Source: an uncultured Coriobacteriaceae bacterium (GTDB taxonomy: Bacteria; Actinomycetota; Coriobacteriia; Coriobacteriales; UMGS124). Taken from it: a stretch of DNA of 64,000 nucleotides. Each line of letters opens with the position of its first letter. The stretch's first letter is position 1. The translations under genes were made by a program, and so were the position numbers. Location: NCBI GenBank assembly GCA_900539345.1, contig UQBS01000001.1, positions 6,938 to 70,937 of the forward strand. Reading direction: 5' to 3'. The notes beneath the pieces are model-generated. The model was not told the origin of the DNA. It did no database searches and worked only from the letters and a program-made list of their open reading frames with translations. Below are positions 4,424-54,157 of this stretch, one piece after another.

Positions 4424-4543
4424 CACAGCAACGGGCGCGGCATGCCCCGTGGCACACGCGCCGTCCTTGGCCATATGGGCAGGGGCGGCGCGTTGCCGTT
4501 TATGGGCTACATCATCGAGCAGGGCATATCAGGAGGAGCACAC

Positions 4544-5887
4544 ATGAAAGAAGAGCGCGCAGCGTACATCCAGGCCATCCGCGACCTCGACGGCGACCTG
4601 CCGGGCCGTCGCGCCGCGCTCGATTTCGTGGAGCAGTCCGACATCTGGGTGCACGGGGCTCCCGCTCGCTTCCCCTACGTGCCCTATCTCTTCAACGCCG
4701 CCGACGTGGCCTTCTTGCAGGACACCTGCACGCAGATTCACACCATCCTCTCCAAGGTCATCGCGCGCTATGTGGACGAACCCTCCTATCGCGACCTCTT
4801 CTGCTTCCCCGAGGAAGTGAAGCGCCTCATCCTTTTGCCCTGCGGCTACGACGAGAAGCTGCCCATGGGCCGCTTTGACCTGTTCCTCAACGAGGACGAC
4901 CTGTCGTACAAGTTCTGCGAGTTCAACACCGACGGGTCGGGCGCCATGTCGCGCGACCTGGTGTTGGCCAGCGCCCTTGAGCAGACCCCGGCTTTCGCCC
5001 GCTTCGCGCAGGGCAGGCGTGTGGAGAAGTTCGAGCTCTTCGACAGCTGGGTCGAAGCGTTCATGCAGGTGTACCGCTCCGACCGCTTTGCCAGCGCCCC
5101 TGTGCCCAACGTCTGCGTGACCGACTTTGCCGAGTCGGGCGTGTTCAGTGACTTCAACCGCTTCATCGCCGCCTTCGAGCGCGCGGGCATCCCCGCCCGC
5201 TTCGTGGACGTGCGCAGCTTCGAGTTCGACGGCGAGAGGCTCATCGACCCTGCCGACGGCACTCAGATCCACGCGATCTACCGCCGCGCCGTCACGAGCG
5301 AGATTCTGCAGCACCCCGGCGAGTGCGATGCGCTCATCGACGCCGTCGCCGCAGGTAAAGTCTGCCTTATCGGTCACTTCCGCACCACCGTCGTGCACTC
5401 CAAGATGGTCAACGTCGCGCTGTTCGACGAGCGCACCCGCGCTTTCCTCACGCCCGAGGAGTGCGCCTTCATCGACCGCACGGTGCCGCGCACCTATCGC
5501 TTGCGTTGCGATAACGCCACGCTCGACCTTGACGACGTGCTCCAGCACAAGGACGCCTGGATCGTGAAGCCCGAGGACGATTATGGCGCGCACGGCGTCT
5601 ATCCTGGCGTCGACTTCGACCAGGAGAGCTGGGAGCGCACCGTGCGCGACAACCTCGACTGCGGATACATCGCCCAGGAGTTCTACCAGCCCGCGCGCGT
5701 CGACGTCGTGCTGCCCGAGCACGCCGAGGGGCAGGACCCCTGCCTCGTGGAGAGCTGGCAGTCGATGCCGGGCTTCTATCAGTACAACGGGCATGTGGCG
5801 GGTCTGTATTGCCGCCTGGGCCAGGAGGGCGTCATCGCGCTCGACCACGGCGGCCTGTGCTCGTGCAGCTTCAAGGTGGACTGCTAG
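4544..5887 (+). CDS. glutathionylspermidine synthase-like ATP-grasp family protein
   Basis: RFDLFLNEDD...KFCEFNTDGS and WIVKPEDDYG segments fit the GSP-synthase pre-ATP-grasp family. Start set at ATG 4544 after AGGAGGAG. Confidence 0.65.
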   Translation: MKEERAAYIQAIRDLDGDLPGRRAALDFVEQSDIWVHGAPARFPYVPYLFNAADVAFLQDTCTQIHTILSKVIARYVDEPSYRDLFCFPEEVKRLILLPCGYDEKLPMGRFDLFLNEDDLSYKFCEFNTDGSGAMSRDLVLASALEQTPAFARFAQGRRVEKFELFDSWVEAFMQVYRSDRFASAPVPNVCVTDFAESGVFSDFNRFIAAFERAGIPARFVDVRSFEFDGERLIDPADGTQIHAIYRRAVTSEILQHPGECDALIDAVAAGKVCLIGHFRTTVVHSKMVNVALFDERTRAFLTPEECAFIDRTVPRTYRLRCDNATLDLDDVLQHKDAWIVKPEDDYGAHGVYPGVDFDQESWERTVRDNLDCGYIAQEFYQPARVDVVLPEHAEGQDPCLVESWQSMPGFYQYNGHVAGLYCRLGQEGVIALDHGGLCSCSFKVDC

Positions 5888-7777
5888 GTGGCCAAGAAGA
5901 AAGGCAAGACCTTCGGCGACCGCCTGGCCCGCCAGCTCAAGGTGAGCATGGGGGCCTGGTGGAGCGACGAAGGCATCCAGGCAATCAATGAGATAGCGCG
6001 TCAAGGAGAGGTTGAGGTGGCCGATGCCACCTTCGGCAGCCTCGTGCTGCAGCCGTGCCTCACCTTCCAGCACGAGATGGCCGTGCGCGACTTCGACGAG
6101 CAGGGCAAGGAGTTCGACGACCTGTCGCCCTTCGTCTATCCCGAGCTCATGCGCACCTGGGAGCACAACAGTGCCTGCGTGGAGTTCTCCGAAGGCGCCA
6201 CGGCGGTCGCATTCGATTCCGAGCCTGGGTTCGTCCAATCGGTGTCGCTGGCGGGTTTGTTCGACTTCTTCCCGGGCTGCGTGGCGCTCGACGTGCGCAA
6301 GCTCAATGTCATGCTCTACAACATCGTGGTGGACGAGGTGTTCGTCTACCCCTCCTACAACGCCGTGAACGGCCATGTCGCGCTCATGTTCGTGGGCGTG
6401 AACCAAAACCTTGGCTTTACGTTTGCCTACGAGGCGCGCCTGGTGCTGCAGGGCGAGACGTTCGGCGACGCTGCCCGCGCAACGAACCGCGTGTTGGAGG
6501 AGGAGCGTTCGGCATGCCTGGGTGGTTTCTCCACTGCGCCCTCCGAGGAGTTCTTCTCGGCGCTCGACTCCGAGCCCGAGCTGTTCGCCGTGACCTGGCG
6601 TCTTCTGGCCGCCCTGTGCTCGGAGCGTGTGGAGCTCGTGCGTCAGAGCTGGGGTCGCGGCGAGACGGTCAAGGTCCGCGCCCGCAAGCCCGAGAGCCAG
6701 CAGGTGGTTGAGGGCGTGCATGTGGGGGAGGGGCATGGCGGCCAGGCTGCTGCAGCCGGTGAGCAGGCGCAGGCGAGCCCTGCGTCGCAGGTGGACGCTT
6801 CGCAGGCGATGTCTGCCGGGGAGGCTGCAACCCAGGGGAAAACCGTGGACGGCGGCGTGGCCGCTGGACGGGTTGACCTGCATGCAGAAGGCCCTGGTGC
6901 TGGGGCTGACGGGCAAGTTGCTGCGGCTGGTGGCGTTGCATCCCAGGGGCAGGCCGCCTCGCGTGCGCAGGGTTCTGATGACCAGGGGCGGGTCGCCACG
7001 CCTGCGGATGACGGTGTTGCCGAGGGGCGGGCCGCCGCGCATGAAGGGGACGCTGCGGTCGAGTGCGGTGGTATCTCTGGCGAGTCTGTTGCACACGGCG
7101 AGGCCGCAGAGACCGCTGCTACATCTGCGGACGTCGAGCGCGCAGAGGAGGCCCGGCTTGAGCGCGACCTGCTCCAGGAAGAGGTCGACCGCCTGCGTGC
7201 CGAACTCGAGTCGCAGAAGTCTGCCGCCGCGTTTCGCACGCGCCAGCTCGAGGACGAGGCGCGTGAGCTGCGTGAACGCGCCCAAGGTCTTGAGAGCCGC
7301 GCCCGCCTTGTGGAGACCATGGACCTGCCCGAGACGCCCTATGAGGCGCTCTCATTGGCTGCCCAGGCTTTCTCCGATCGCATCGTCGTGCTTGACCGCG
7401 CGCGCAAAAGCGCCGAGGACTTCGTGAAGGGCGACCCCGGCGAGGTCTGGGCGGTGCTGCGCTCGGTGGCCGTGACGCTTCACAGCCTGCTTTTCGTCGA
7501 GCGCGAGCGCGGTTTGGCCAACGCCTTCCGCGACCGTACGGGCTACGAGCTGGCCCTGCGCGACTCGAAGGGTGCCAACCGCAACCCCGACCAGAAGGCC
7601 GAGCGCATGGTGGAGTACGAGGGCGCCGTGCGCGACGCCACGATGCACATCAAGGGCCGCGGCCTGCGCAAGGGCGAGAGCCTGCGCGTGCACTTCTTCG
7701 TCGACTACGACAAGAAGAAGATCGTCATCGCCCACTGCGGCGAACACCTCACCACCGACCGCACCTCAAGCATGTAG
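5888..7777 (+). CDS. hypothetical 629-aa protein: globular N-domain, Ala/Gly/Gln-rich linker, coiled coil, conserved-looking C-domain
   Basis: GTG start directly follows the TAG of the upstream gene. Coding-like composition outside the low-complexity centre. No family recognised. Confidence 0.6.
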   Translation: MAKKKGKTFGDRLARQLKVSMGAWWSDEGIQAINEIARQGEVEVADATFGSLVLQPCLTFQHEMAVRDFDEQGKEFDDLSPFVYPELMRTWEHNSACVEFSEGATAVAFDSEPGFVQSVSLAGLFDFFPGCVALDVRKLNVMLYNIVVDEVFVYPSYNAVNGHVALMFVGVNQNLGFTFAYEARLVLQGETFGDAARATNRVLEEERSACLGGFSTAPSEEFFSALDSEPELFAVTWRLLAALCSERVELVRQSWGRGETVKVRARKPESQQVVEGVHVGEGHGGQAAAAGEQAQASPASQVDASQAMSAGEAATQGKTVDGGVAAGRVDLHAEGPGAGADGQVAAAGGVASQGQAASRAQGSDDQGRVATPADDGVAEGRAAAHEGDAAVECGGISGESVAHGEAAETAATSADVERAEEARLERDLLQEEVDRLRAELESQKSAAAFRTRQLEDEARELRERAQGLESRARLVETMDLPETPYEALSLAAQAFSDRIVVLDRARKSAEDFVKGDPGEVWAVLRSVAVTLHSLLFVERERGLANAFRDRTGYELALRDSKGANRNPDQKAERMVEYEGAVRDATMHIKGRGLRKGESLRVHFFVDYDKKKIVIAHCGEHLTTDRTSSM

Positions 7778-39818: not shown

Positions 39819-40047
39819 GCGTGCCTCCTTCGCGGGGCTGGCTTGACGGCGCGGCGAGTGCGGTATAGTTTTTGGCAGTGACACGGCAGGGGGTCTCCAT
39901 GGAGCCCTGCCCAGGGCGGCTGCCTCCGGGTGGTCGCCCTTTTTCGTTTGGAGCCAGTAACGCAGCACTGAAAGGCCTGCTGGGAATCATTTTACCGACC
40001 TCGGCAAAATGACCGTCGCGCCCTACAATCGCGCCGAGGAGGCGCGC

Positions 40048-41034
40048 ATGCTGAGAGTGAGAAGGAAGATGGAAAGAGAGAGGGTTGTCTATAGGATTTG
40101 CGGCGTCGACCCTGAGACCGGGGTCGGCGCCCAGGAGCTGGCGAAGGTTCTGTCCAGCTTCAGCGGCCTCGTGCGCGAGACCGTCACGGTGCTCGGGTGC
40201 CAGGACGAGGTGTCCATCAAGGTGCGGCCCTTCCGCGAGGGGTCGTTCATAGTCGAGTTCGCGACCGAGGTCGCCAGCGGCCTGCTCGGGTTCCTCTCGT
40301 CCAGCGAAGGAGGGGCACTGAGCACCGGCCTCGCGATTCTCGGCTTCCTCGGCGGAGGGTCGTTCACGCTGCCTGCCATCGTCCGAAAGGTGAGGGGCCG
40401 CGTCGACCGTTTCACCGACAACGGCGACGGTACATACACCTATGGGTCGGGCGACGACGCCGTCACGGTCGGCGAGGACACGCACAGAGTCGTGCAGTCC
40501 CAGAAGGTCGCCGAGCAGTACACCACGGCCGCCATGGGGCCGATTGTCGGCAGCATCAACGCCCAGAGCGTCCAGATATACGTCGGCGACCCGCACACCC
40601 CTCCGGCGGCGGGGCACCAGGCGACGTTCACGCCTGAGGACGGGGAGCCCTTGGCGACCTACCGCAAGGTGGCGACGGGCAACTCCGACATGCTTGACGA
40701 GGTCACCTCGGAGAAGACGAGCTTCGAGATGCACGGCGTGATCCTTCACCCGGCGTCGGGCTCCTACGACGGCGCGGAGCGCGGCTACACCTTCACCACG
40801 GGCGACGGCGCGGATGCGACAACGTACAGGAAGGTCGCGATAGCGGACGAGGAGTTCCGTGAGAGGCTCGAGCGCGCGGAGGTGAGGCTCTTCGCAAAGG
40901 ACACGCTCAAGGTCGACATGACGGCCGTGCAGAGGGTGTCCAAGACCCGCGCGGTGACGTGGGCCTACACGATCGACAAGGTGCACTCGTACGAGCCGTA
41001 CAGACCGTGCCAGCAGGAGGGCCTCGGCATATAG
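40048..41034 (+). CDS. hypothetical 328-aa protein of unknown function (lysogeny-arm cargo)
   Basis: GAGGAGG RBS before ATG 40048 (the track ORF begins at 40009). Gly-rich hydrophobic segment and an internal TYRKVA duplication. Confidence 0.6.
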   Translation: MLRVRRKMERERVVYRICGVDPETGVGAQELAKVLSSFSGLVRETVTVLGCQDEVSIKVRPFREGSFIVEFATEVASGLLGFLSSSEGGALSTGLAILGFLGGGSFTLPAIVRKVRGRVDRFTDNGDGTYTYGSGDDAVTVGEDTHRVVQSQKVAEQYTTAAMGPIVGSINAQSVQIYVGDPHTPPAAGHQATFTPEDGEPLATYRKVATGNSDMLDEVTSEKTSFEMHGVILHPASGSYDGAERGYTFTTGDGADATTYRKVAIADEEFRERLERAEVRLFAKDTLKVDMTAVQRVSKTRAVTWAYTIDKVHSYEPYRPCQQEGLGI

Positions 41035-41429: not shown

Positions 41430-42905
41430 ATGGACATGCAGGGCAAGGCGAGGACGGCCGTCGTCTATGCGCGCTTCAGCTGCTCGAAGCAGCGCGAGGC
41501 GTCCATCGACGACCAGCTGCGCGAGTGCCGCGCGTGGTGCGAGCGCGAGGGCGTCGAGGTCGTGCGGGAGTACTGCGACTATGCCGTGTCGGGCCGCACC
41601 GACGAGCGGCCGGAGTTCCAGCGCATGATCTCCTCGGCGGGGGAGTCCGACCTCGTCGTCGTGTACATGATGGACCGTTTCTCGCGCAACGAGTTCGACG
41701 CACCGATATACAAGCGCGAGCTGCAGCGCCATGGCGTGCAGCTGGTCTCCGCGCTCGAGCGCATCCCAGAGTCGCCGGAGGGCATCATCTACGAGAAGCT
41801 CCTCGAGGGGCTCGCTGCCTGCGAGAGCCGCAAGACGTCCGTGCGCACGAGGCGAGGGATGGAGGGAAATGCGCTCAAATCCATGCCGAACGGCGGCCAG
41901 CGGCCCTACGGGTACCGCAACGTCGGCGGGAAATACATTGTGGACGAGGCTGAGGCCGCCGTCGTGCGCGAGATCTTCGAGCGTCGCGCCTCCGGCGAGA
42001 CGAACCACCACATCGCCGCCGACCTGGCTGCACGCGGGGTGGTCAATGCCCAGGGCAGGCCGATGAGGGACCAGGTAGTCGGGAAGATCATCAGGTCGCG
42101 CAGGTACGTGGGAGAGTACCGGTGGGGCACGATCGTGACCCCGAACGCCTTCGAGGCCATCGTGGACGAGGCGCTGTGGGAGTCCGCAAACGCCAAGGTA
42201 GCCGCCAGGAGCCGCGACCGCGAGAGGCAGGACTACAGGGAGTACCCGCTCGTCGGCAAGGCCCTGTGCGCCGTATGCGGCCACGGGCTTTCGGGCGAGT
42301 CTGCCCACGGCAGGGGCGGCGTGCGGTACGACTACTACACCTGCAGCGCCGGCGGCGCGCGCAACCACATTCGGAGGACCCGCGCGCAGTGGCTCGAGAG
42401 AGCCGTGGTGCAGGGCATCCGCGCCATGCTGTCCGACCGCGCCACGGCCGAGCACATCGCAGGGATGGTCGTGGAGTCCAAGACCGGCGCCGCCGTTGAG
42501 CGCCGTCGCGCTGGCATCCAGGCCGACATCCGCAAGGCGGACGACGCCATGCGCAATTTGATCCGCGCCATCGAGGAGGGGCTGTACACGCCTGCCATGA
42601 GGGAGAGGATGGACGAGCTGCAGGCCGCCAAGGCGCACGCCGAGGCCGAGCTCGCCATGGTGCAGGAGACCACCGTCACCGTCGAGGAGTTCACGGAGTT
42701 CCTGCTCTCCGGCACCTCGATGAGCCACAGGCAAATCATCGACTGCTTCGTGTGGTCAATTGTATTGGACAATGATGACGCCGTCGTGACTCTCAACTGG
42801 GACACCCGACAGGCACAAAAAAACGAACCAGCTCGTATCGAACTGGTTCGTAAGAATAGCGAATGGCTCCCCGAGCAGGGCTCGAACCTGCAACAACTCG
42901 GTTAA
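41430..42905 (+). CDS. large serine recombinase (prophage integrase)
   Basis: AVVYARFSCSKQ catalytic Ser region, recombinase domain, CAVCG...YYTC zinc ribbon, coiled coil. The last roughly 30 codons run through the tRNA-Asn terminator and into the tRNA gene. Confidence 0.9.
   Translation: MDMQGKARTAVVYARFSCSKQREASIDDQLRECRAWCEREGVEVVREYCDYAVSGRTDERPEFQRMISSAGESDLVVVYMMDRFSRNEFDAPIYKRELQRHGVQLVSALERIPESPEGIIYEKLLEGLAACESRKTSVRTRRGMEGNALKSMPNGGQRPYGYRNVGGKYIVDEAEAAVVREIFERRASGETNHHIAADLAARGVVNAQGRPMRDQVVGKIIRSRRYVGEYRWGTIVTPNAFEAIVDEALWESANAKVAARSRDRERQDYREYPLVGKALCAVCGHGLSGESAHGRGGVRYDYYTCSAGGARNHIRRTRAQWLERAVVQGIRAMLSDRATAEHIAGMVVESKTGAAVERRRAGIQADIRKADDAMRNLIRAIEEGLYTPAMRERMDELQAAKAHAEAELAMVQETTVTVEEFTEFLLSGTSMSHRQIIDCFVWSIVLDNDDAVVTLNWDTRQAQKNEPARIELVRKNSEWLPEQGSNLQQLG
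42817..42850 (-). terminator. intrinsic terminator of tRNA-Asn
   Basis: Minus strand CGAACCAGTTCG ATA CGAGCTGGTTCG followed by TTTTTTT. Confidence 0.75.
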
Positions 42906-42938
42906 CAGCCGAGTGCTCTACCATTGAGCTATCGGGGA
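42864..42938 (-). tRNA. tRNA-Asn (GTT), CCA encoded
   Basis: Hand-folded 75-nt cloverleaf: 7-bp acceptor TCCCCGA/TCGGGGA, anticodon loop CTGTTAA, T loop TTCGAGC. Confidence 0.95.
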
Positions 42939-44523: not shown

Positions 44524-44747
44524 ATGTGCGAGGAATTACTATACGCGTCATGACTCCTCTTGGCTAGTCAAAACAGGCGATTCATAAACAGCACACATAT
44601 GGCCAAGATCCGGGCCAAGGCCGCGAAACATATGACATGCGCAGCACGGTTTTGAAACGTGCATGTGGTAGGCTTTGCGCCATACGCTGGATCGGACGTG
44701 CCTGTCGCACAACATGCAGGGCACACGCTATGAGAAGGGTCGCTCTT

Positions 44748-45833
44748 ATGAAGAGGAATCGTATCCAGGGCATCTCCGCCGCCGTTGCTTCGCTGACACT
44801 TGCAGGCACCTGCTTTGCCGCTCCCGCTTATGCCGCTTCCAACTCGGTGTTTGGCTCTGGTTTCTCTGGTCAGTCTTCGACCGAGACTCCCATTACGTCC
44901 CCCGTTGCCGAGCCCGTCCCGGATACGAGCCAGGCCACCATGCCTGACGATCCCGACGACGTCGATCCGGATTTCCTCGTAGATTCCGACGTGGACTATG
45001 CAGCGCTGGTCATGGAGATGCTTGGTCTCGACGACGCCGCGCTCGATCAGATTCTTTCTGGCGATCTTTCCATTGTGACCAATGCCCTGGGCGATACCAT
45101 TGACGCAGACACTCAGGCTGCCATTGACGAGGCCTCTCAGAGCCTTGCCGAGGCGAACCTCACTACCGCGCAGGTCAAGGATGCCTTCAATGCCGTGGCG
45201 AACGAGGCCGTCAATTCCCTGGCAGACCTGATCGACGCCACCGAAACCTTCCTGACCGAGAACAACCTCATCGTTGAGGATGCCGTGCTCTACAGCGGGG
45301 AGCCCTATCTGGCAGACGACCCCACCGCTCAGCAGCTCACCCTCGGTGGCGTCTCGATGCTCATTCCGAGTGACTTCGCGTTTCAGCAGCTGACTCCCGA
45401 AGAGATCGCCGCGGCGTTTGAGCTCGACAACGCCGAGGATATCGTGAGCGATGCCTATATCGCCACCAACGACACGAGCTCTGCCGGTCTTATCTGCGCC
45501 CAGCTTACGCCCGATGCCCTGGGCGGCGCCGGGTATGACATAGCGCAGACCATGGCCGACGAATCCAAGCTCGTCTACCTCGAGACGGAAAGTTCCGTGT
45601 TCAGTGCGGGGTGCGCGAGCCTCGAAGACGGCACGCCTATCTTCGACCTGGGCTACCTCAAGGCTTCCGAAGAGCGCCCCTGCTTCTACGAGCTCATTAT
45701 GATGCCCTCCGATGACGGTGGTCTTGTCGTTGTGTTTGCGCTGACCGATGAGACGGCCACGCTTGACGACTGCGCGACCTTGTCCGACATCATGACCTCC
45801 CTTGCCGGCACGGGTTACGTGGAGGCACGCTAG
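44748..45833 (+). CDS. secreted acidic protein of unknown function
   Basis: Signal peptide MKRNRIQGISAAVASLTLAGTCFAAPAYA. GAGAAGGG RBS. An alternative start lies at 44730. Confidence 0.6.
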   Translation: MKRNRIQGISAAVASLTLAGTCFAAPAYAASNSVFGSGFSGQSSTETPITSPVAEPVPDTSQATMPDDPDDVDPDFLVDSDVDYAALVMEMLGLDDAALDQILSGDLSIVTNALGDTIDADTQAAIDEASQSLAEANLTTAQVKDAFNAVANEAVNSLADLIDATETFLTENNLIVEDAVLYSGEPYLADDPTAQQLTLGGVSMLIPSDFAFQQLTPEEIAAAFELDNAEDIVSDAYIATNDTSSAGLICAQLTPDALGGAGYDIAQTMADESKLVYLETESSVFSAGCASLEDGTPIFDLGYLKASEERPCFYELIMMPSDDGGLVVVFALTDETATLDDCATLSDIMTSLAGTGYVEAR

Positions 45834-45836
45834 TCT

Positions 45837-46505
45837 ATGACCCAACCTCGTTTTTCGTACGTGCTGTTCGACTGTGACGGCACGCTGCTCAACACCATCG
45901 GCGACCTGGCCTGCGCGGGCAACCTCGTGTGCGAGGCGCACGGCTGGCTCACGCATGACATCGATTCGTTCAAGCGCATGGTGGGCGACGGCCAGCGCGT
46001 GCTCGTGAGGCGTTTCGTTCCCGAGGACGTTGCAGCCGACCCCGATGCGCTTGAGGCTGCCTACCAGGAGTTTGTCGAGCTCTATAGCGCCCACAAGGAA
46101 GACACGACGGGCCCCTACGAGGGCATCGTCGCCTGCGTGGAGCGCCTGAGGGCCGCCGGCGTGCATGTGGGCGTGCTCACGAACAAGAACCACGAGCAGG
46201 CTATCCCGCTTGTCGAGAAGTTCTTCCCGGGCCTTTTCGACGCCGTGCAGGGCAGGCTCGACACACTGCCCGCCAAACCCGCCGCTCCCATGACGCACGC
46301 GCTCATGGATGCGCTGGGGGCCGATCCGGCGTCGACCCTCATGGTGGGAGATACCTCGGTCGACATTGCATGCGGCACTAACGCGGGCATCGCTGCCTGC
46401 GGCGTTACCTGGGGTTTCCGCCCTCGCACCGAGCTTGTTGAGGCGGGTGCCAACTTTATCGTCGACACCCCTGCCGAATTGGCCCGTCTCATCTTGGGCG
46501 AGTAA
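45837..46505 (+). CDS. HAD-family hydrolase (phosphoglycolate phosphatase-like)
   Basis: FDCDGTLLNT motif I, LTNK motif II, GDTSVD motif IV. Confidence 0.8.
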   Translation: MTQPRFSYVLFDCDGTLLNTIGDLACAGNLVCEAHGWLTHDIDSFKRMVGDGQRVLVRRFVPEDVAADPDALEAAYQEFVELYSAHKEDTTGPYEGIVACVERLRAAGVHVGVLTNKNHEQAIPLVEKFFPGLFDAVQGRLDTLPAKPAAPMTHALMDALGADPASTLMVGDTSVDIACGTNAGIAACGVTWGFRPRTELVEAGANFIVDTPAELARLILGE

Positions 46506-46661
46506 GGCCGCGCGGCACATCTGCCGCTTGCATTTCGCTTCTTTTCTGTCGGGGCCCGTTCCGGGATGGTGCGGGTCCCGCTTTGTGTTTAAGTGGGGGT
46601 CTCAAAGGGGTTGCGGCGCATCGGACGTGTCGTGATGCGCGGTACAAGCGGGGTGGTGGAC

Positions 46662-48599
46662 ATGGCTCAGGCACAGTTTGACAGGCATCTCAAGCCGGGT
46701 GACGCCCGCGCGGCCCTTGATCGCATCGCCTCGTCGCAGGCCTTCCAGGCAAGCCGTTTCTCGAGCTCGGTATACGAAGATGAGCCCATCCTGCGTACGG
46801 GAAGCCAGTTTCGCCGCGACGCGGAGTCATCGCGACCCTACCAGCTCATCCATCAGCTCGCACAACGCGAGGACTTGAGGTACGCCCCCGCGGCGAGGGT
46901 GTTCTATGAGCAGGCGCGCGCTCTTGCCGACTTCGACGGCACGGGCGACCCCACGGTGCCCTTCAAGTCATATTTCCCCACCTACCAGGCCATGAACGAC
47001 CGTCAGCTCTCGTCGTATCTGGCATGGCGCACCCAGGCCCGCAAGGGCGTCATCGCCGCCTCCACGGCGAGCTATGCGTTCGTCTATATCTACGAGCTGC
47101 TCATGGGCGTGGGAACGCAGGAGGGCCTGCCTGCGCTTGCAGCACTGACGTCCTTTTGGGTCGCCTGGAAGAAACAAGCCACGACAGATGCCGGTTTGCT
47201 CGACTTCTACCTGCACATCTGGCTGCGCGACTACATCGTGTACCATGGCCTCGACCGATCGCTTCTCGAGCGCGTGAGCGGTCCCGCCTCCCAGCGCGAT
47301 GTCGTTGACGTGTATGCCGCCGTTCCCGTGCTGCGCGAGGCTGAGGCGCTTGTGCTTGCCGGGGGTTCCCTTGCAGGTGACATGGCGCAGAAAACGTTTG
47401 ACGCCATGTGCCTGGCGTCGTCGTTTCGCCTCACGGGCTCAAAGTTCTACAAGGACTATCCGGCTGAGACGCAGGCCGTGACCTGCGGTGTCTTTGCGCG
47501 CTTGGTTCAGCATTGTGCCCATCGCCGCAAGGTGGGCTATGTCGACGGGCTGTTTGGCGCCGAGCAGCGCCGCGCCCATCCCATGTTTTACGGCGCCGTG
47601 TTCTATGCCCCACAGACCCATCCCGATGCCACGTACCGCGTGAGCGATTCTGAGGCGTACATCTGTCGTGACGGCACCTGGCGGCGCAAGGTGCCTTGTG
47701 CCGAGGAGACACGCAGCCGCGACCTGGGGCTTTTGATGCACACGGTGGATCACGAGATGCGTCGCATATGGGAGTACCCCAAGCAGGTGCGCGCCTACGA
47801 GGTGCCCCGCTACCTTGAGGGATTCGTTACCAAGGAGGCCACGGCTGCCCATGAGGCCTGGCTCGCGGCTCAGACTCCCAAGATTCATATCGACCGTTCG
47901 CTTCTGCGCGGTATTCGCACGGCCGCCGTCAAGACGCGCGAGTCGCTCCTGGTAGATGAGGAGCGAGCCGAGGAACCCGCGATGACGGGCGTGGGCGTTG
48001 CACCGAAGGCGCCCGCGACTGTGACTGCACCGGCCACGCCGAGCAAGGAAGACGGTCTGCATGCGGCATCCCAAGCGGGCGGGGCAATTGCGGCTCCTGG
48101 TTCGGGCACGGCCTCCATGGCGGGTGTGGCGGCTGACTCGAGTGCGGCCTTCTCGGCAGGCAAGGTGCCTGCGGCTCTCGCTTCTAGCATGGTTGCCACA
48201 TCGGGTATGGAGGCTGCTTCAGGCGTGGCTCGCATGGCAGGTGAGTCGACTATGGCTTCCACTTCGAATGCGGTTTCTGCGCTGGGCGCGTTGCCTGGGT
48301 TGAATGGACGTCCTGCGGCGGGCGAGGCAGATGCGGATTCTGCCTTGGACGTGGATCGCGCCACCTCCACTGAACCTTGTGGTCTCACTGCCTCTGAGCT
48401 GGCGTTTCTCCAGGCGCTCCTTGCCGGTGATGTGGCGGGCGCGAAGGCGGCAGTGGGTGTCGGCATGGTGAGCCTCATGGTGGACGCGGTGAACGAGAAG
48501 CTCTACGACGAGATCGGCGACGCCGCCATCGAGTTCGACGGCGACACCCCGCAACTTGTGGAAGACTATCGTCCCGATGTGGAGGAGCTTCTCTCGTAA
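46662..48599 (+). CDS. sngA: TerB-N / TerB-C domain protein (Shango SngA-like)
   Basis: FKSYFPTYQAMNDRQLSSYLAWR...SYAFVYIYELLMG fits TerB-N. C-terminal MVDAVNEKLYDEIGDAAIEFDGDTPQLVEDY fits TerB-C. Ala/Ser-rich linker between them. Confidence 0.7.
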   Translation: MAQAQFDRHLKPGDARAALDRIASSQAFQASRFSSSVYEDEPILRTGSQFRRDAESSRPYQLIHQLAQREDLRYAPAARVFYEQARALADFDGTGDPTVPFKSYFPTYQAMNDRQLSSYLAWRTQARKGVIAASTASYAFVYIYELLMGVGTQEGLPALAALTSFWVAWKKQATTDAGLLDFYLHIWLRDYIVYHGLDRSLLERVSGPASQRDVVDVYAAVPVLREAEALVLAGGSLAGDMAQKTFDAMCLASSFRLTGSKFYKDYPAETQAVTCGVFARLVQHCAHRRKVGYVDGLFGAEQRRAHPMFYGAVFYAPQTHPDATYRVSDSEAYICRDGTWRRKVPCAEETRSRDLGLLMHTVDHEMRRIWEYPKQVRAYEVPRYLEGFVTKEATAAHEAWLAAQTPKIHIDRSLLRGIRTAAVKTRESLLVDEERAEEPAMTGVGVAPKAPATVTAPATPSKEDGLHAASQAGGAIAAPGSGTASMAGVAADSSAAFSAGKVPAALASSMVATSGMEAASGVARMAGESTMASTSNAVSALGALPGLNGRPAAGEADADSALDVDRATSTEPCGLTASELAFLQALLAGDVAGAKAAVGVGMVSLMVDAVNEKLYDEIGDAAIEFDGDTPQLVEDYRPDVEELLS

Positions 48600-48725
48600 G
48601 GTTCACTTGCCTTGCGCGCTGTGTTGACTTGGCCCGCGGGGGCTTTTTGTCCGCTGCACTTGGTATCCTATCTGCGATTGCGCTTATCGGTGGGCTCAGG
48701 AGCTCGCCGGCAGAAAGGTTGCCCG

Positions 48726-50357
48726 ATGAACGCCAAAGCAAATGCCTCCAGTGCCGCCGACACCCCCAAGGTGCCCCGTCGCATCGCCTCGGTCATCATC
48801 AACTCCCTTAAGGGCGGTGTCGTGCCGCGCGTGGGCTTGCCGTACATCACCGTGGGTCGCCAGGCCGAGATTGAGGCGCTCCTGCACGACCTCGAGCTCG
48901 TGGGGGAGGGCGGCGCGTCGTTCCGCTTCCTCGTAGGCCGTTACGGTTCGGGCAAGAGCTTCTTGCTGCAGACCATCCGCAACCACGCCATGGGCAAAGG
49001 CTTCGTCGTGGCCGACGCCGACCTGTCGCCCGAGCGCCGCCTGCAGGGCACGAAGGGCCAGGGTCTGGCCACCTACCGCGAGCTTATCAGCAACCTTTCC
49101 ACCAAGACGCGCCCCGAGGGCGGCGCGCTCACGCTCATTCTCGATCGCTGGATTTCCAACGTGCAGATGGAGGTGGCTGGCGAGGGCGGCTTCGACCTGG
49201 CAAACCCTGCCGACCCCGCGTTTGCCGCCGAGGTCGAGAAGCGCATCTACGTGGTCATTCGCCAGCTGCAGGACATGGTGCATGGATACGACTTCGCGCG
49301 CCTGCTCGCCATGTATTTCCGCGCCTACGTGGAGTCCGACGACGAGACGAAGGCCAATGTCGTACGGTGGTTCCGTGGCGAGTACCGCACCCGCGCCGAG
49401 GCCAAGGCCGACCTGGGCGTGAACATCGTGATTGGCGACGACGACTGGTACGATTACATCAAGCTGTTTGCGAGCTTCCTCAAGGGCGCGGGCTACGCGG
49501 GCCTCGTTGTGCTTGTCGACGAGCTCGTGAACCTGTACAAGATTCCCAACGCCGTGGCACGCCAGTACAACTACGAGAAGATTCTCACCATGTACAACGA
49601 CACGCTCCAGGGCCGCGCGAGCTACCTGGGCATCATCATGAGCGGCACGCCTCAATGCGTGGAGGACCGCCGCCGTGGCCTCTACAGCTACGAGGCGCTG
49701 CGCAGCCGTCTGGCTCAGGGACGCTTTGCCAGCGAGGGCCATGTGGACATGCTTGCCCCTGTCATCCAGCTCCAGCCGCTGACCCCAGAGGAGCTGCTCG
49801 TGCTTGTGGAGAAGCTCGCCGACATCCATGCGGGCTTCTTTGGCTACGAGCGCGTCCTGCGCGAGGAGGACCTGGTGGCCTTCCTGCAGGTAGAGCTTGC
49901 GCGTGTGGGCGCCGACAGCCACATCACGCCGCGTGAGATCATCCGTGACTTCGTGGAGCTGCTCGACATCCTCTATCAGAACCCCGCGCTCACCCTTGAG
50001 GGGCTTGTGAATGACCCGGCGTTCTCCCAGCGTCCGGCCACCTTGCCGTGCGAGGAGGACGATTCCCGCGTGACGAGCACCACCGCGCAAGCGGGATTCG
50101 GGCAGGCTTTCGCCTCCCGTCCGACTGCGTCCGGCGCTCAACGCATCGCTTCTTCGAGCTCGACGTCTGCCGTCGCCGCGCAGGCGGCGCCGTCAGCGGG
50201 TCTTGGGCAGGTGGCCCCCGGTCGTTGCGCCCCGCAGTCGGCATCCTCGCTGTATGACGAGGTGATCCAGCCGACCGCCTCCGAGGTGCCTAGCACTCAG
50301 CGTGTGGCGGCCGAGCCGGTTGCGGCGCCGCGCACGTTCGCAGAGTTCACCATCTAG
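48726..50357 (+). CDS. sngB: P-loop ATPase, BrxD/DUF2791-like (Shango SngB-like)
   Basis: Walker A GRYGSGKSF, Walker B LVVLVDELVNL. Low-complexity C-terminal tail. Confidence 0.7.
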   Translation: MNAKANASSAADTPKVPRRIASVIINSLKGGVVPRVGLPYITVGRQAEIEALLHDLELVGEGGASFRFLVGRYGSGKSFLLQTIRNHAMGKGFVVADADLSPERRLQGTKGQGLATYRELISNLSTKTRPEGGALTLILDRWISNVQMEVAGEGGFDLANPADPAFAAEVEKRIYVVIRQLQDMVHGYDFARLLAMYFRAYVESDDETKANVVRWFRGEYRTRAEAKADLGVNIVIGDDDWYDYIKLFASFLKGAGYAGLVVLVDELVNLYKIPNAVARQYNYEKILTMYNDTLQGRASYLGIIMSGTPQCVEDRRRGLYSYEALRSRLAQGRFASEGHVDMLAPVIQLQPLTPEELLVLVEKLADIHAGFFGYERVLREEDLVAFLQVELARVGADSHITPREIIRDFVELLDILYQNPALTLEGLVNDPAFSQRPATLPCEEDDSRVTSTTAQAGFGQAFASRPTASGAQRIASSSSTSAVAAQAAPSAGLGQVAPGRCAPQSASSLYDEVIQPTASEVPSTQRVAAEPVAAPRTFAEFTI

Positions 50358-50366
50358 GCGGCCCCC

Positions 50367-52829
50367 TTGAACGTTTTCGACCGCTATGCGCCTTTCGTCC
50401 AGGATTTCATTTACTCGCACGGCTGGGAGTCGCTGCGCGGCATCCAGGTGGCCGCCGGCGACGCCATCTTCAACACCGACGACAACGTGCTCCTGGCGGC
50501 GTCCACGGCTTCGGGCAAAACTGAGGCGGCGTTCTTTCCGATTCTCACGCTCTTTGACGAGAATCCGCCGGCATCGGTGGGCGCCATCTACGTGGGCCCG
50601 CTCAAGGCGCTCATCAACGACCAGTTCTACCGCCTGAACGACCTGTGCGCTGAGGCGGGCATCCCCGTGTGGCACTGGCACGGCGACGTGAGCGCCTCTC
50701 ACAAGGCGCGCATGCTCAAGAACCCCTCGGGCATCCTGCAGATTACTCCCGAGTCGCTTGAAGCGCTGCTCATGCACAAGCATTCGGCTGTGGCCAGGCT
50801 TTTCAGCGACCTGCGCTTTGTGGTGATCGACGAGGTGCATTCGCTTCTGCGTGGCGATCGCGGAGGGCAGACGCTTTGCTGCATCGAGCGCCTCTCGCGC
50901 ATGGCGGGCGTCAACCCCCGCCGCATTGGTCTATCGGCCACCATCGGCGACCCCGAGCTCACGGGCGAGATCCTCTCGCGCGGCACGGGTCGGGGCTGCG
51001 TCATCCCACAGGTCAAGGAGCAGGGCCGTACCTGGCGTCTCTCCATGGAGCATTTCTTCGTGAGCGGCCCCCAGGCGGTGCAGCGTGGACCTCATCCCCG
51101 CACGCAGATAAGCGAGCCTGCCGGAGCCGCAGGACCCGCGCTTGAGCCCGCCAGCGACGTGGCGCCCGAGCACGCCGACCCCGGTATCGCCTACATCTTC
51201 GAGCACACCAAAGATGCCAAGTGCCTGGTCTTTGTCAACTCGCGCGAAGAGGCTGAGGCTGTCACCACGAGTCTGCGCCAGTATTGCGAGGCCACCGGCC
51301 AGCCCGACCGCTTCCTCATCCACCATGGCAACCTTTCCTCGTCGCTGCGCGAGAGCGCCGAGGACGCCATGCGCGACGACGACCGCGTGTTCACGACCGT
51401 GACAACCGCCACCCTCGAACTCGGCATCGACATCGGCAGGCTTGAGCGGGCCTTCCAGATAGACGCGCCGTTCACGGTGAGCAGCTTTCTGCAGCGCATG
51501 GGTCGCACCGGCAGGCGCGAGCGGCCTTGCGAGATGTGGTTCGTCATGCGCGAGGAGGAGCCCGAGGCGCGCGCCCTCATGCCCGAGTGCATTCCCTGGA
51601 AGCTTGTGCAAGGCATCGCCCTTGTGCAGGTGTACCTGGAGGAACGTTGGGTCGAGCCGCCGCGCACGGGCCGGATGCCCTTCAGCCTGCTCTATCACCA
51701 GACCATGGCGACGCTTGCCTCGTGCGGCGAGATGAGCGCCGCCCAGCTGGCCAATCAGGTGCTCAATCTGTCGTGCTTCGACAATATCTCGCCCGACGAC
51801 TATCGGGTGCTCCTGCGTCACCTTGTGGACATCGACCACATCGAGCGCGCCGATGAGGGTGGTCTCATCGTGGGTCTCGCTGGCGAGCGCGTCACGAGTT
51901 CCTACAAGTTCTATGCGACGTTCCAGGACAACGAGGAGTACGCCTGCCGCAGCGAGTCTATGGAGCTCGGCACGATTGTGCAGCCGCCGCCACCGGGCGA
52001 GAAGATTGCCATCGCTGGCCATGTGTGGATTGTCGAGGAGGTTGACCACAAGCGCCATGTGGTGTACTGCACGCAGGTGAAAGGCAAGGTGCCGGCCTAC
52101 TTTGGCGAGGTCGCCGGCGACATCCACACCCACGTGCTCGAACGCATGCAGCGCGTGCTGGCGGAGGACACGCAATACATGTACCTCATGGGCAACGCCC
52201 AGGCTCGCTTGGAGGAGGCGCGCCATGTCGCACGCGCCTCGGGGCTTGTTGCGGGGCCGACCCCTCCGGCGGGGGCTTTGCCTGCGGGAGCGGCGCGTCT
52301 GCCTCGCCAGGCAGCCCAGGGTGCCGTGTGGGGGGAGGACCCGGCTGACTGGCAGGATGCGGGTGCCGCTGGCCCTGGGGGCGTGCGTGGCAACGAGGCG
52401 CTCATGCGCTCCTCGGACGCAGGCGAGTTTCCCTATGCCGCCGCAGCCTCTTTGGCCGAGGGTGACTGGCTTATCAACCTGGGCGGCGACACCTGGGCGC
52501 TTTTCCCCTGGCTGGGCACGTATGCGTTCCTGACGCTCGAGCGTCTCATCAAGATCAAGTGTGCGCCCCGCCTGGGCATCAAGGGCATCGACTCGGCGCG
52601 GCCCTACTACATCCAGTTCCGCATGGCAGCCGAGCGAGACGACTTCCTGCAAGTAGTGCAGCAAGAGGCGCTCGCCCTTACCGACCCCATGGAGCTCGTG
52701 TATCCCGAGGAAGTGCCCATCTTCGACAAGTACGACGAGTTCGTTCCCGAAAGCCTCGTGCGCAAGGGTTTCGCCCACGGCGTGCTCGACATCGAAACCA
52801 TGCGCGCCCGCGTCCTTTCCTGGCAATGA
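50367..52829 (+). CDS. sngC: Lhr-like DEAD/DEAH-box helicase (Shango SngC-like)
   Basis: ASTASGKTEAAF, VVIDEVHSL, SATIG, TATLELGIDIG and QRMGRTGRR motifs. TTG start 9 nt after the sngB stop. Confidence 0.8.
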   Translation: MNVFDRYAPFVQDFIYSHGWESLRGIQVAAGDAIFNTDDNVLLAASTASGKTEAAFFPILTLFDENPPASVGAIYVGPLKALINDQFYRLNDLCAEAGIPVWHWHGDVSASHKARMLKNPSGILQITPESLEALLMHKHSAVARLFSDLRFVVIDEVHSLLRGDRGGQTLCCIERLSRMAGVNPRRIGLSATIGDPELTGEILSRGTGRGCVIPQVKEQGRTWRLSMEHFFVSGPQAVQRGPHPRTQISEPAGAAGPALEPASDVAPEHADPGIAYIFEHTKDAKCLVFVNSREEAEAVTTSLRQYCEATGQPDRFLIHHGNLSSSLRESAEDAMRDDDRVFTTVTTATLELGIDIGRLERAFQIDAPFTVSSFLQRMGRTGRRERPCEMWFVMREEEPEARALMPECIPWKLVQGIALVQVYLEERWVEPPRTGRMPFSLLYHQTMATLASCGEMSAAQLANQVLNLSCFDNISPDDYRVLLRHLVDIDHIERADEGGLIVGLAGERVTSSYKFYATFQDNEEYACRSESMELGTIVQPPPPGEKIAIAGHVWIVEEVDHKRHVVYCTQVKGKVPAYFGEVAGDIHTHVLERMQRVLAEDTQYMYLMGNAQARLEEARHVARASGLVAGPTPPAGALPAGAARLPRQAAQGAVWGEDPADWQDAGAAGPGGVRGNEALMRSSDAGEFPYAAAASLAEGDWLINLGGDTWALFPWLGTYAFLTLERLIKIKCAPRLGIKGIDSARPYYIQFRMAAERDDFLQVVQQEALALTDPMELVYPEEVPIFDKYDEFVPESLVRKGFAHGVLDIETMRARVLSWQ

Positions 52830-53167
52830 CACAAGGGGAGGGGCGTGCTGTGTCATTTTGCGCGCCGTGGGAGCGGCCGCTCTCGGACGCAAGGGGACGA
52901 GGGCGCTGCGTTATGGCATGCTCGACGTTGATGCCGCTTGAACTTGCGTTCTCGGTTGGCAATGACGAAAAGGAATGGCGAAAAGAGGCCGGTGCAATCC
53001 GTCGTTTCGGGTTAGTTCTGCCTGGTCACACCCCATGGCGCACGTGCCGCCGCTTGTTGGCACCCAATGGCACGCCGGGCCACTTCGTTGCAAATGCAAC
53101 AGTCCTGGTGAGCAAAGGGGCTATACTGGACTGCATCCGTGTGCTTTGCTAAGGAGAGGATGTTTGC

Positions 53168-54157
53168 ATGAAGAAGGAAACGCTCGTTGCCATTGTCGAG
53201 GCTCTCAAGGAGGGCAAGACGCCGGTTTTCCCTGCGGAGGACTTCCCCTGCTTCGAGCCGGAGGCCCTCGCGGGCAAGGAGAACGTGACGCCCGTCGTGC
53301 TCGACGCCCTCGTCAACGGCATCACTATGGCCGACGTGCCCGTTTTCGAGCGTGCCATCGCTGCCATGGACGCTGGCGAGCTTGCCTGGATCGGCTTCAA
53401 GCTCGTGTTCGACCCCCAGGCCGCTCAGTCCAATGTGGACAACGAAGTCACCAAGAAGTACGGCGAGCAGGGTTCTGCCGACGGTGAGCCGCTCGTTTTC
53501 TTCTGCAGCGATGCCAAGGAGGTCGTGGCCAGCCGCGAGTACTCGCCGCGCGACCTCTTCCAGATGAAGGACATCACGCGTGGCCCGGGCATGCACAACG
53601 ACCAGTTCGCCGGCCTCACCTGGATGAGCGCCCCGCTTTTCGACAAGGTCCACGTGTGGCTGCTCGGTGCTTCCGACGCTGCTGCCGAGACGGCCGCCCT
53701 CGCCGAGCACGTGGGCTTCCGCGTGACGGTCGTGGACTACGATCCCGCCTACATCAGCGAGGAGCGCTTCCCCACTTCTGAGCGCATCCTGCTGCCTGGC
53801 CCCGGTTTTGTCGGCATCGACGACATCGAGTGCGCTCCTGAGGACTACGTGTGCGTCCTTACCCGTGGCCACATGTTCGACCCGCAGGGCTGCGTGTGGG
53901 GCACGCGCCAGCACGCGCACTACGTGGGCATGATGGGCTGCAAGGGCAAGAACGACACCGTGCACAACCTCGTGCTGGCCCAGGGCGCAACCGAGCTCGA
54001 CTGGCAGCGCGTCAAGCGCCCCATCGGCCTCAAGTTTGGCGCCAAGACCCCCGCAGAGCTCGCCATCGCCATCGTCGCCGAGCTCGTGGACGTGCGTTAC
54101 CAGCAGCGTTACTCCGCCGAGGCTCGCGCCAAGCACGAGGCCAGCCTGGGCAGGTAG
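53168..54157 (+). CDS. XdhC/CoxI-family protein (Rossmann-like XdhC_C domain)
   Basis: VWLLGASDAAAETAALAEHVGFRVTVVD...VCVLTRGHMFD...PIGLKFGAKTPAELAIAIVAEL. Confidence 0.7.
   Translation: MKKETLVAIVEALKEGKTPVFPAEDFPCFEPEALAGKENVTPVVLDALVNGITMADVPVFERAIAAMDAGELAWIGFKLVFDPQAAQSNVDNEVTKKYGEQGSADGEPLVFFCSDAKEVVASREYSPRDLFQMKDITRGPGMHNDQFAGLTWMSAPLFDKVHVWLLGASDAAAETAALAEHVGFRVTVVDYDPAYISEERFPTSERILLPGPGFVGIDDIECAPEDYVCVLTRGHMFDPQGCVWGTRQHAHYVGMMGCKGKNDTVHNLVLAQGATELDWQRVKRPIGLKFGAKTPAELAIAIVAELVDVRYQQRYSAEARAKHEASLGR

Follow-up and report, generated by a model that had tools for sequence, protein, structure and literature searches.

We analyzed a 64,000-nucleotide (nt) window of contig UQBS01000001.1 (assembly GCA_900539345.1), from an uncultured Coriobacteriaceae bacterium, and conclude with near certainty that three adjacent genes within it, sngA, sngB and sngC, constitute a Shango (SngABC) defence system. 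Our fuller reading, which we hold to be probable with some reserve, is that the locus is an intact, expressed-looking Shango operon of a subtype with TerB_N and TerB_C domains but no TerB, vertically kept in an uncultured gut Coriobacteriales clade at one site, upstream of xdhC. Judged from sequence comparisons, the operon appears to be functional and under constraint, and its inheritance in this clade vertical. Within its known family it is an ordinary member, set apart only by its long floppy linkers and its fixed chromosomal place. The three genes are as follows.

46662 to 48599, plus strand: sngA, ATG to TAA, 645 amino acids; TerB_N/TerB_C protein, the fast-evolving subunit.
48726 to 50357, plus strand: sngB, ATG to TAG, 543 amino acids; BrxD-like ORC/Cdc6-type AAA+ ATPase.
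50367 to 52829, plus strand: sngC, TTG to TGA, 820 amino acids; Lhr/BrxHI-like superfamily 2 (SF2) helicase.

The genes are co-directional and follow one another in the order A-B-C, with intergenic gaps of 126 nt (sngA-sngB) and 9 nt (sngB-sngC), just as a preliminary description of this DNA, made from the letters alone, had laid them out; the same gene order is found in the Shango loci L081, L082, L089 and L090. In PADLOC, the top match of each of the three proteins was a Shango model: PDLC03958 for SngA (4.3e-64, covering profile positions 53-527 of 528), PDLC03959 for SngB (2.4e-188, 625 bits) and PDLC03960 for SngC (4.9e-268, 890 bits). These models stood well ahead of the BREX models, in keeping with the Shango assignment of the preliminary description. 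Pfam placed TerB_N (PF13208; 7.7e-24, 85 bits against a cut-off of 25) and TerB_C (PF15615; 9.3e-15, 55.6 bits against a cut-off of 26.3) in SngA, BrxC_BrxD/DUF2791 (PF10923; 8.8e-168, 559 bits against a cut-off of 22) in SngB, and DEAD and Helicase_C in SngC. The two TerB-related domains of the first gene had been predicted beforehand, and the profile search, which could have contradicted that prediction, found both above threshold. Every sequence motif that had been quoted for the three genes is present. SngA contains FPTYQAMNDRQLSSYLAWR at residues 105-123, FVYIYELL at residues 140-147 and DAVNEKLYDEIGDAAIEFDGD at residues 608-628. The second gene had been described as a BrxD/DUF2791-like ATPase with clear Walker motifs, and SngB indeed carries Walker A (GRYGSGKS, residues 71-78, 48936-48959) and Walker B (VVLVDE, residues 261-266, 49506-49523). 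The third had been called an SF2 helicase with all motifs intact, which SngC likewise bears out, with GKT of motif I at residues 50-52 (motif I span 50505-50528), DEVH of motif II at residues 155-158 (50829-50840), SAT of motif III at residues 190-192 (50934-50942) and QRMGRTGRR of motif VI at residues 376-384 (51492-51518).

The ratio of nonsynonymous to synonymous substitution (dN/dS) was 0.01-0.05 in the folded parts of the Shango proteins, compared with 0.03-0.04 for xdhC, a sign of strong purifying selection. A pseudogene reading was rejected on the dN/dS values, the profile scores and the context. We found no recognisable nuclease, toxin or membrane domain in SngA, SngB or SngC by Pfam, PADLOC and Foldseek (the last run on the SngA model and the model of the SngC C-terminal half), and none of the three proteins has a hydrophobic segment at transmembrane level.

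Three genes that flank the operon are listed here.

44637 to 45833, plus strand: open reading frame (ORF) of 398 amino acids, between a tRNA-Gly gene and the HAD gene; syntenic in L001-L003; dN/dS 0.07-0.14.
45837 to 46505, plus strand: HAD hydrolase gene, upstream neighbour (Pfam HAD_2, 1.9e-29); syntenic in L001-L003.
53168 to 54157, plus strand: xdhC-like gene (Pfam XdhC_C), conserved neighbour on the downstream side, outside the system.

In 7/7 of the nearest GTDB species representatives sngC lies directly upstream of xdhC, the full order unk398-HAD-sngA-sngB-sngC-xdhC-opp is found in the three representatives with enough flanking sequence, and Shango is present on all 12 of the 12 contigs that carry an identical XdhC protein. 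The arrangement sngABC-xdhC also occurs in two sister lineages, L091 and L092, where it is followed by ygjP and speE. Compared with the window, the proteins of these lineages are 55% (SngA), 76-79% (SngB), 80% (SngC) and 72-81% (XdhC) identical, so that SngB and SngC have diverged at about the pace of a neighbouring core gene. Pairwise synonymous divergence tells a similar story, with overlapping ranges for the Shango genes (0.16-0.43) and the flanks (0.14-0.26). At 73 other Eggerthellaceae-type loci xdhC has no Shango beside it and the adjacency is limited to this clade; in these more distant genomes synteny around xdhC is absent, so that they say nothing on insertion or loss. No empty-site allele, with HAD next to xdhC and no Shango, was found among the GTDB species representatives and the identical-protein contigs. 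The preliminary description had seen in this neighbourhood a defence/integration hotspot. It is a prophage integration site, but at this scale it does not behave like a variable defence island: the operon stands alone among housekeeping genes, no other defence system flanks Shango, and the site is the same in all relatives recovered. The description had also named housekeeping-like conservation across the family as a sign that would speak against defence; such conservation exists within this clade but is not family-wide, and elsewhere Shango is patchy in distribution and mobile, being carried by plasmids or lying beside recombinase genes.

One such locus is L081, in which Shango has a serine recombinase gene on one side and a tyrosine recombinase gene on the other and is therefore probably mobile. 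NCBI labels its SngC Candidatus Onthovicinus, and near-identical proteins are labelled Oscillospiraceae; with 71% (SngB) and 74% (SngC) identity to the window, this points to transfer across phyla, if the taxonomic labels hold. Shango is further found on a Clostridium estertheticum plasmid (L090) and on hundreds of Klebsiella and Salmonella plasmids, one copy, on a Klebsiella IncF plasmid, standing beside a Lit protease gene. These settings, together with the anti-phage activity that experiments have shown for homologues (PMC10250203; Millman preprint), speak for defence over housekeeping at the level of the family. As separate observations, in the Collinsella tanakaei locus L083 (GCA_016900335, 1-12463) sngC is split from sngA-sngB by ~7.5 kb with four unrelated genes, which encode an Fe-hydrogenase-like protein, two components of ABC transporters and an SLH protein. 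Two contigs labelled Alistipes onderdonkii (L007) and Prevotella sp. CAG:279 (L070) carry a Coriobacteriales-type xdhC, 86% and 69% identical to that of the window, and L007 also has an sngC, 80% identical; both contigs are probably binning contaminants in those metagenome-assembled genomes (MAGs).

SngA is the most divergent of the three proteins, and the parts of it that are discussed below are listed here.

46779 to 46808, plus strand: conserved peptide DEPILRTGSQ (SngA residues 40-49), in an N-terminal stretch with no secondary structure in the AlphaFold2 (AF2) model and a predicted local distance difference test score (pLDDT) of 54-67.
46878 to 47333, plus strand: TerB_N domain of SngA (residues 73-224), Pfam PF13208.
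47967 to 48365, plus strand: disordered Ala/Gly/Ser-rich linker of SngA (residues 436-568), 133 residues between the invariant LLVDEER motif and TerB_C.
48336 to 48584, plus strand: TerB_C domain of SngA (residues 559-641), PF15615, an acidic, winged-helix-like H-H-H-beta-beta-H unit; pLDDT 87-96.

The TerB domain proper (PF05099) is absent from SngA in Pfam at E<=0.01, and it is also missing from the Pfam architectures of the 120 nearest SngA homologues and from the PADLOC SngA profile. SngA has been called 'TerB-like' in the literature; the missing PF05099 is a subtype difference and not a defining Shango feature in practice. Within the conserved N-terminal peptide, each of D40, E41, P42, I43, G47 and Q49 is either invariant or kept in 90% or more of 52 homologues. 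The AF2 model is confident at residues 60-430 and 570-645 and is mainly alpha-helical, with a small beta-sheet at residues 302-344. Foldseek gave no significant match to the Protein Data Bank (PDB) for this model (best E 1.4); weak, non-significant matches to LysR/MarR winged helices were not localised in the output and are not used as evidence of function. PDB sequence searches with SngA and with SngB returned nothing. Elsewhere, gene callers place the sngA start at a GTG at 46635. The L003 orthologue has a 2-nt indel and a GCA in place of the GTG at the equivalent of that start, and SngA homologues down to 55% identity begin MAQA, which makes the ATG at 46662 the better start. SngA identity is 33-38% in locus pairs for which SngB and SngC give 71-74%, and the 55% identity to L091 and L092 likewise lies below the values for their SngB and SngC. 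Such rapid divergence would be expected of a phage-facing subunit.

SngB consists of a constrained ATPase body (residues 1-437, dN/dS 0.02-0.05) followed by a tail in two parts.

50037 to 50336, plus strand: low-complexity tether of SngB (residues 438-537), joining the ATPase body to the FAEFTI tip.
50337 to 50354, plus strand: C-terminal tip of SngB, FAEFTI-COOH, conserved across the family.

The tip reads FAEFTI in Collinsella, FAEFSI in Coriobacteriales, FAEFEL in the Oscillospiraceae type, LANFKL in Klebsiella and YTGFTV in Clostridium. A search of 1.84 billion representatives gave 2104 SngB matches, and among the best 150, which we examined, 33 end in [LFY]AxFx[LI], in most cases with acidic residues before it; this C-terminus is found in 0 of 240 control sequences of SngA and SngC. 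The tail is 9-39 residues long in most complete family representatives. A scan of IMG/VR found no close SngB relatives. The TAG of sngB is in frame with the TTG of sngC, with three codons (GCG GCC CCC) between them (window 50355-50369), and read-through of the stop would yield an SngB-SngC fusion; the shared frame is probably due to chance (1 in 3) and translational coupling.

The TTG start of sngC is backed by the N-termini of all aligned homologues. Three parts of SngC outside the helicase motifs are of interest.

51072 to 51164, plus strand: variable loop between RecA1 and RecA2 of SngC (residues 236-266), short here and up to ~200 residues in homologues P0136 and P0149.
52257 to 52463, plus strand: clade-specific Ala/Gly/Pro-rich insertion of SngC (residues 631-699), between the post-beta-barrel helical region and the C-terminal alpha/beta domain.
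52464 to 52826, plus strand: C-terminal alpha/beta domain of SngC (residues 700-820), shared with BrxHI; pLDDT 83-96.

The AF2 model of the C-terminal half shows winged-helix, beta-barrel, helical and alpha/beta modules, and this winged-helix/beta-barrel/C-terminal domain (CTD) series is the one published for BrxHI, whose C-terminal domain was described as Lhr-CTD-like (PMC12839542). In SngC homologues that lack the insertion, the BrxHI profile match reaches the C-terminus. Foldseek found no significant PDB match (best E 0.037) and no nuclease fold for this half of the protein, and weak LuxS-like matches in the Foldseek searches are not used as evidence of function. By sequence, the best PDB match of SngC is Lhr (5v9x, 1.4e-28). 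On related metagenome contigs, the SngC proteins P0123 and P0124 are 82-84% identical to the window over residues 1-300 and mostly 95-100% identical over residues 300-820, the exception being residues 301-400 of P0124 (80%); these mosaics suggest that Shango variants belonging to one clade have recombined within sngC.

The preliminary description had pointed to Ala/Gly/Ser/Pro-rich stretches in all three proteins, and composition shows that they are real: A/G/S/P/T account for 66% of SngA residues 436-568, 59% of SngB residues 438-543 and 61% of SngC residues 631-699. Its figure for SngA, the last third of the protein, was too large, as the stretch makes up ~21%. The three stretches are expanded linkers at positions where the family varies in length, not new domains or modules. 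In SngA, the linker has a pLDDT below 50 between parts that score above 85 on either side, its dN/dS is 0.62-0.77 compared with 0.02-0.04 for residues 1-435, and its length ranges from ~10 to ~140 residues among homologues. At the position of this linker Klebsiella SngA has a true TerB domain (PF05099, residues 518-624). For the tether and tip of SngB (residues 438-543) dN/dS is 0.38-0.42. The SngC insertion is predicted to be disordered (pLDDT below 50) and is present only in P0121-P0125, being missing in 11 other aligned homologues; its dN/dS of 0.08-0.15 is noisy, at 69 codons. SngC of L091 and L092 has 795-796 residues, ~25 fewer than in the window, and the stretch at the insertion site is presumably shorter there too. 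We found no A/G/S/P/T-rich window in the Klebsiella, Clostridium or Oscillospiraceae-type Shango proteins, and the statement that characterised proteobacterial proteins lack such insertions holds against the one Klebsiella IncF plasmid Shango compared.

That plasmid, Klebsiella pneumoniae NZ_CP021686 (L089), represents here the Shango systems of Escherichia coli and Pseudomonas aeruginosa PA14 (Millman et al., 2022; Johnson et al., 2023). It shares with the window the gene order, the PADLOC SngA, SngB and SngC families, the tight juxtaposition of sngB and sngC, a hydrophobic SngB C-terminal tip after acidic residues and the lack of a recognisable nuclease; its SngB is ~41% identical. The two differ in that Klebsiella SngA (769 residues) has a central TerB where the window protein has its 133-residue disordered linker, in that Klebsiella SngB (438 residues) and SngC (731 residues) are without the 100-residue tether and the 69-residue insertion, in the distance between sngA and sngB (3 nt as opposed to the conserved 126-nt spacer), and in their location, the Klebsiella copy being on a plasmid beside Lit and the window copy chromosomal and fixed. 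The compact, TerB-less Shango of gut Bacillota (L081, L090) is like the window system in that SngA consists of TerB_N and TerB_C only, and L081 is also close to it in SngB and SngC and in its SngB tip, FAEFEL. However, the compact proteins have 498, 438 and 748 residues and no low-complexity stretch, their genes overlap, and SngA of L081 is only 33% identical to that of the window.

More distant likenesses are to the BrxD-BrxHI dyad of type-2 BREX/Pgl, in which a homologous ORC/Cdc6-type ATPase and Lhr/Ski2-like helicase are likewise encoded side by side and the helicase has winged-helix, beta-barrel and Lhr-CTD-like domains as SngC does; in contrast to type-2 BREX, the partner in the window is a TerB_N/TerB_C protein, and BREX profiles score well below Shango ones. 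Among proteins of known structure, the SngC motor is matched best in sequence by Lhr of Mycobacterium smegmatis and MrfA/YprA (6znp, 8.6e-24), which have a similar domain order after the motor. The match is strongest in the motor itself, in RecA1 for Lhr and in both RecA domains for MrfA. SngC nevertheless scores far below the NCBIfam cut-offs of these proteins and is encoded together with SngA and SngB; the ligase-associated DEXH model TIGR04121 gave 197 bits against a cut-off of 850, with its best stretch at residues 11-207 only.

For the mechanism we offer a tentative proposal, in which we place less than even confidence. SngB, as an ORC/Cdc6-type AAA+ ATPase, would be an ATP-dependent loader or activator of SngC, and SngC would be an Lhr/Ski2-like single-stranded DNA translocase that acts on phage nucleic acid through its winged-helix, beta-barrel and Lhr-CTD-like DNA-binding modules. 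The pair would be the same dyad as BrxD-BrxHI of type-2 BREX; BrxD has been classified as a standalone ORC/Cdc6 AAA+ ATPase that is tightly linked with BrxHI and was proposed to be its loader/activator (PMC12839542). The genes for SngB and SngC, 9 nt apart in the window, overlap or almost do so in other loci. SngA, as sensor or adaptor, would determine the timing of motor engagement and the nucleic acid on which it takes place. The three A/G/S/P-rich segments would be flexible tethers between modules, that of SngB ending in an acidic-aromatic tip that probably docks on a partner subunit. Immunity would then come from a helicase that dismantles or blocks phage replication or recombination intermediates and not from cell suicide; broad-dose protection, reported for Pseudomonas Shango (PMC10250203), disfavours simple abortive infection. 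A bolder version, which we think unlikely, holds that the SngB tip, [DE][DE][LFY]-A-x-F-x-[LI]-COOH, is a docking peptide to the helicase or to SngA, like the tail of the single-stranded DNA-binding protein SSB that recruits genome-maintenance proteins, with a tether stretched to ~100 residues. The three clade-specific disordered tethers, that of SngC being under purifying selection, would then have a function, as spacers in a large and flexible SngABC assembly that in this lineage may have turned into a fixed, near-housekeeping guardian of the chromosome.

Several points weigh against reading the locus as a phage-defence helicase system with SngA as its sensor. Its fixed, solitary, syntenic position is atypical of a defence system. 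Anti-phage activity, although shown experimentally for Shango homologues (PMC10250203; Millman preprint), is known from those of E. coli and P. aeruginosa and would be carried over to this locus and subtype by analogy. The faster divergence of SngA could instead reflect weak constraint on a scaffold and not sensing, and, as the fold search gave no significant match for SngA, its residues 225-430 may hold an unrecognised catalytic fold. The published suggestion for Shango, moreover, is membrane surveillance through TerB (Millman preprint).

The first of these points is also what favours a different reading, that SngABC is kept in this clade as a chromosomal repair or replication-restart helicase system like Lhr or MrfA and is no longer mainly a defence system. 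The shared site in 7/7 representatives, 12/12 identical-xdhC contigs and two sister lineages, the want of an empty site among them, synonymous divergence within the range of the flanks, dN/dS values as low as that of xdhC, G+C content that matches the surrounding genome, the lack of flanking defence genes, and the match of SngC to Lhr and MrfA/YprA, two repair helicases that are its best relatives of known structure, all agree with such domestication. We still consider it improbable, as Shango profiles score far above repair-helicase models such as the ligase-associated DEXH model, SngC-type helicases group with BrxHI, DruE and DpdJ in a clade specific to defence (PMC12278908), close homologues are carried by plasmids and by elements with flanking recombinase genes, SngA diverges fast, as an arms-race subunit would, and there is in itself nothing unusual in a defence system being stably inherited.

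Somewhat more improbable is a membrane-surveillance or abortive-infection system, in which SngA would sense a perturbation of the envelope or membrane at phage entry and trigger a cell-harming response. Millman et al. proposed this for Bunzi and Shango on the ground that TerB associates with membranes, the TerB protein of Dionysus has been discussed likewise in the literature, and Klebsiella SngA does carry a real TerB domain. In window SngA and all 120 of its nearest homologues, however, PF05099 is absent, and the lack of TerB together with the lack of transmembrane-level hydrophobic segments in the three proteins disfavours membrane surveillance for the TerB-less subtype; nor was a pore, lipase or other toxic effector domain detected. 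The operon might finally be what is left of type-2 BREX (Pgl) after loss of PglX, PglZ, PglW and BrxC, a BrxD-BrxHI pair now beside an unrelated TerB_N gene. Type-2 BREX is common in Actinomycetota, and in PADLOC SngB does match BrxD (1.9e-51) and SngC does match BrxHI (2.5e-118), two proteins that form a linked dyad. Against this, the Shango models are 3.6-fold (SngB, 625 bits compared with 174 for BrxD) and 2.3-fold (SngC, 890 bits compared with 394 for BrxHI) higher, the NCBIfam BrxD model NF033438 gives 174.5 bits for a cut-off of 350, no PglX, PglZ, PglW or BrxC was found among those ORFs of the window that were selected for comparison with Pfam or PHROGs, and the three-gene unit recurs intact across phyla. 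With Shango models on top and BrxD/BrxHI a distant second, the locus is Shango and not a fragment of BREX, a reading that we find barely credible and rejected on the profile scores and gene context. The linkage of the BrxD-BrxHI dyad itself is published (PMC12839542).

The distance between sngA and sngB in the window is taken up by a conserved element.

48600 to 48725, plus strand: conserved sngA-sngB spacer, 126 nt, with an extended -10-like sequence, TGGTATCCT, at 48661-48669.

Column identity across this spacer is 96% in four species, compared with a synonymous divergence of 0.2-0.3 in the flanking genes, and its core, including TGGTATCCT, is retained in the sister lineages L091 and L092. 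Other Shango loci, in which sngA and sngB overlap or lie 3 nt apart, have no such spacer. The spacer is a probable internal promoter or regulatory element for sngBC, and as a promoter or attenuator it could plausibly uncouple sngBC from sngA. Since a consensus promoter scan of 46.3-53.3 kb found no sigma-70 site, it is conservation that argues for an internal promoter. Terminator-like hairpins in the same interval were no commoner than in shuffled sequences, and Rfam identified only three tRNAs and no known RNA in the spacers.

Upstream of the operon the order is serine integrase (the end of a prophage), tRNA-Asn, a peptide deformylase gene, tRNA-Leu, tRNA-Gly, the 398-residue ORF and the HAD gene. 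The ORF had no match in Pfam, PHROGs or PADLOC and lies in a stretch of lower G+C content (~58%), and the G+C content of Shango matches its surroundings. The prophage, at ~9.3-42.9 kb, is siphovirus-like, with terminase, protease, major head, tape measure, tail fibre, endolysin and serine integrase genes. The preliminary description was right in placing an intact prophage and tRNA genes about 4 kb away, as the integrase ends 3.8 kb upstream of sngA and three tRNA genes were confirmed. The 3' end of the integrase gene (42905) overlaps the tRNA-Asn gene (42864-42938, minus strand; region 41430-42938), which suggests that the prophage integrated into or beside tRNA-Asn. Just before the integrase gene, the prophage ORF at 40009-41034 (plus strand) matches PADLOC candidate family PDC-S42 (8.4e-17) and phrog_3243 and may be a prophage-borne defence gene. 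Far upstream, a 629-residue ORF (5888-7777, plus strand) has no Pfam match, and its C-terminal 200 residues match PADLOC HEC-07 (2.3e-14) and NsnC (1.5e-10); the ORF before it (4424-5887) has a weak glutathionylspermidine-synthase-like match. PADLOC found no other defence gene beside Shango among the neighbouring ORFs.

Downstream of sngC lie xdhC, an Opp-type ABC transporter, and peptidase and creatininase genes. XdhC of the window is 97-98% identical to proteins from uncultured gut Coriobacteriales MAGs and 64-73% identical to those of Gordonibacter, Eggerthella, Adlercreutzia and relatives. The sngC-xdhC intergenic region (52830-53167) varies by indels, with 338 nt here, ~203 nt in L002 and L003 and ~124 nt in L001, and its last ~100 nt before xdhC are conserved.

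Shango has been validated experimentally and, as the preliminary description also held, no mechanism has been published for it in the literature that we found up to 2026. No new kind of system is added by this locus. What it shows is that a 'defence' system can keep a fixed chromosomal position while gut Coriobacteriales diverge deeply, and its expanded linkers mark the module boundaries of all three Shango proteins. Comparison with relatives also gives four points at which the family can be tested: the much faster evolution of SngA relative to the motor pair SngB-SngC; the dispensability of TerB in a large clade from the gut, for which the membrane-surveillance idea is weakened; the conserved C-terminal tip of SngB; and the correspondence of SngB-SngC to the BrxD-BrxHI dyad, for which a loader-helicase model has already been proposed.

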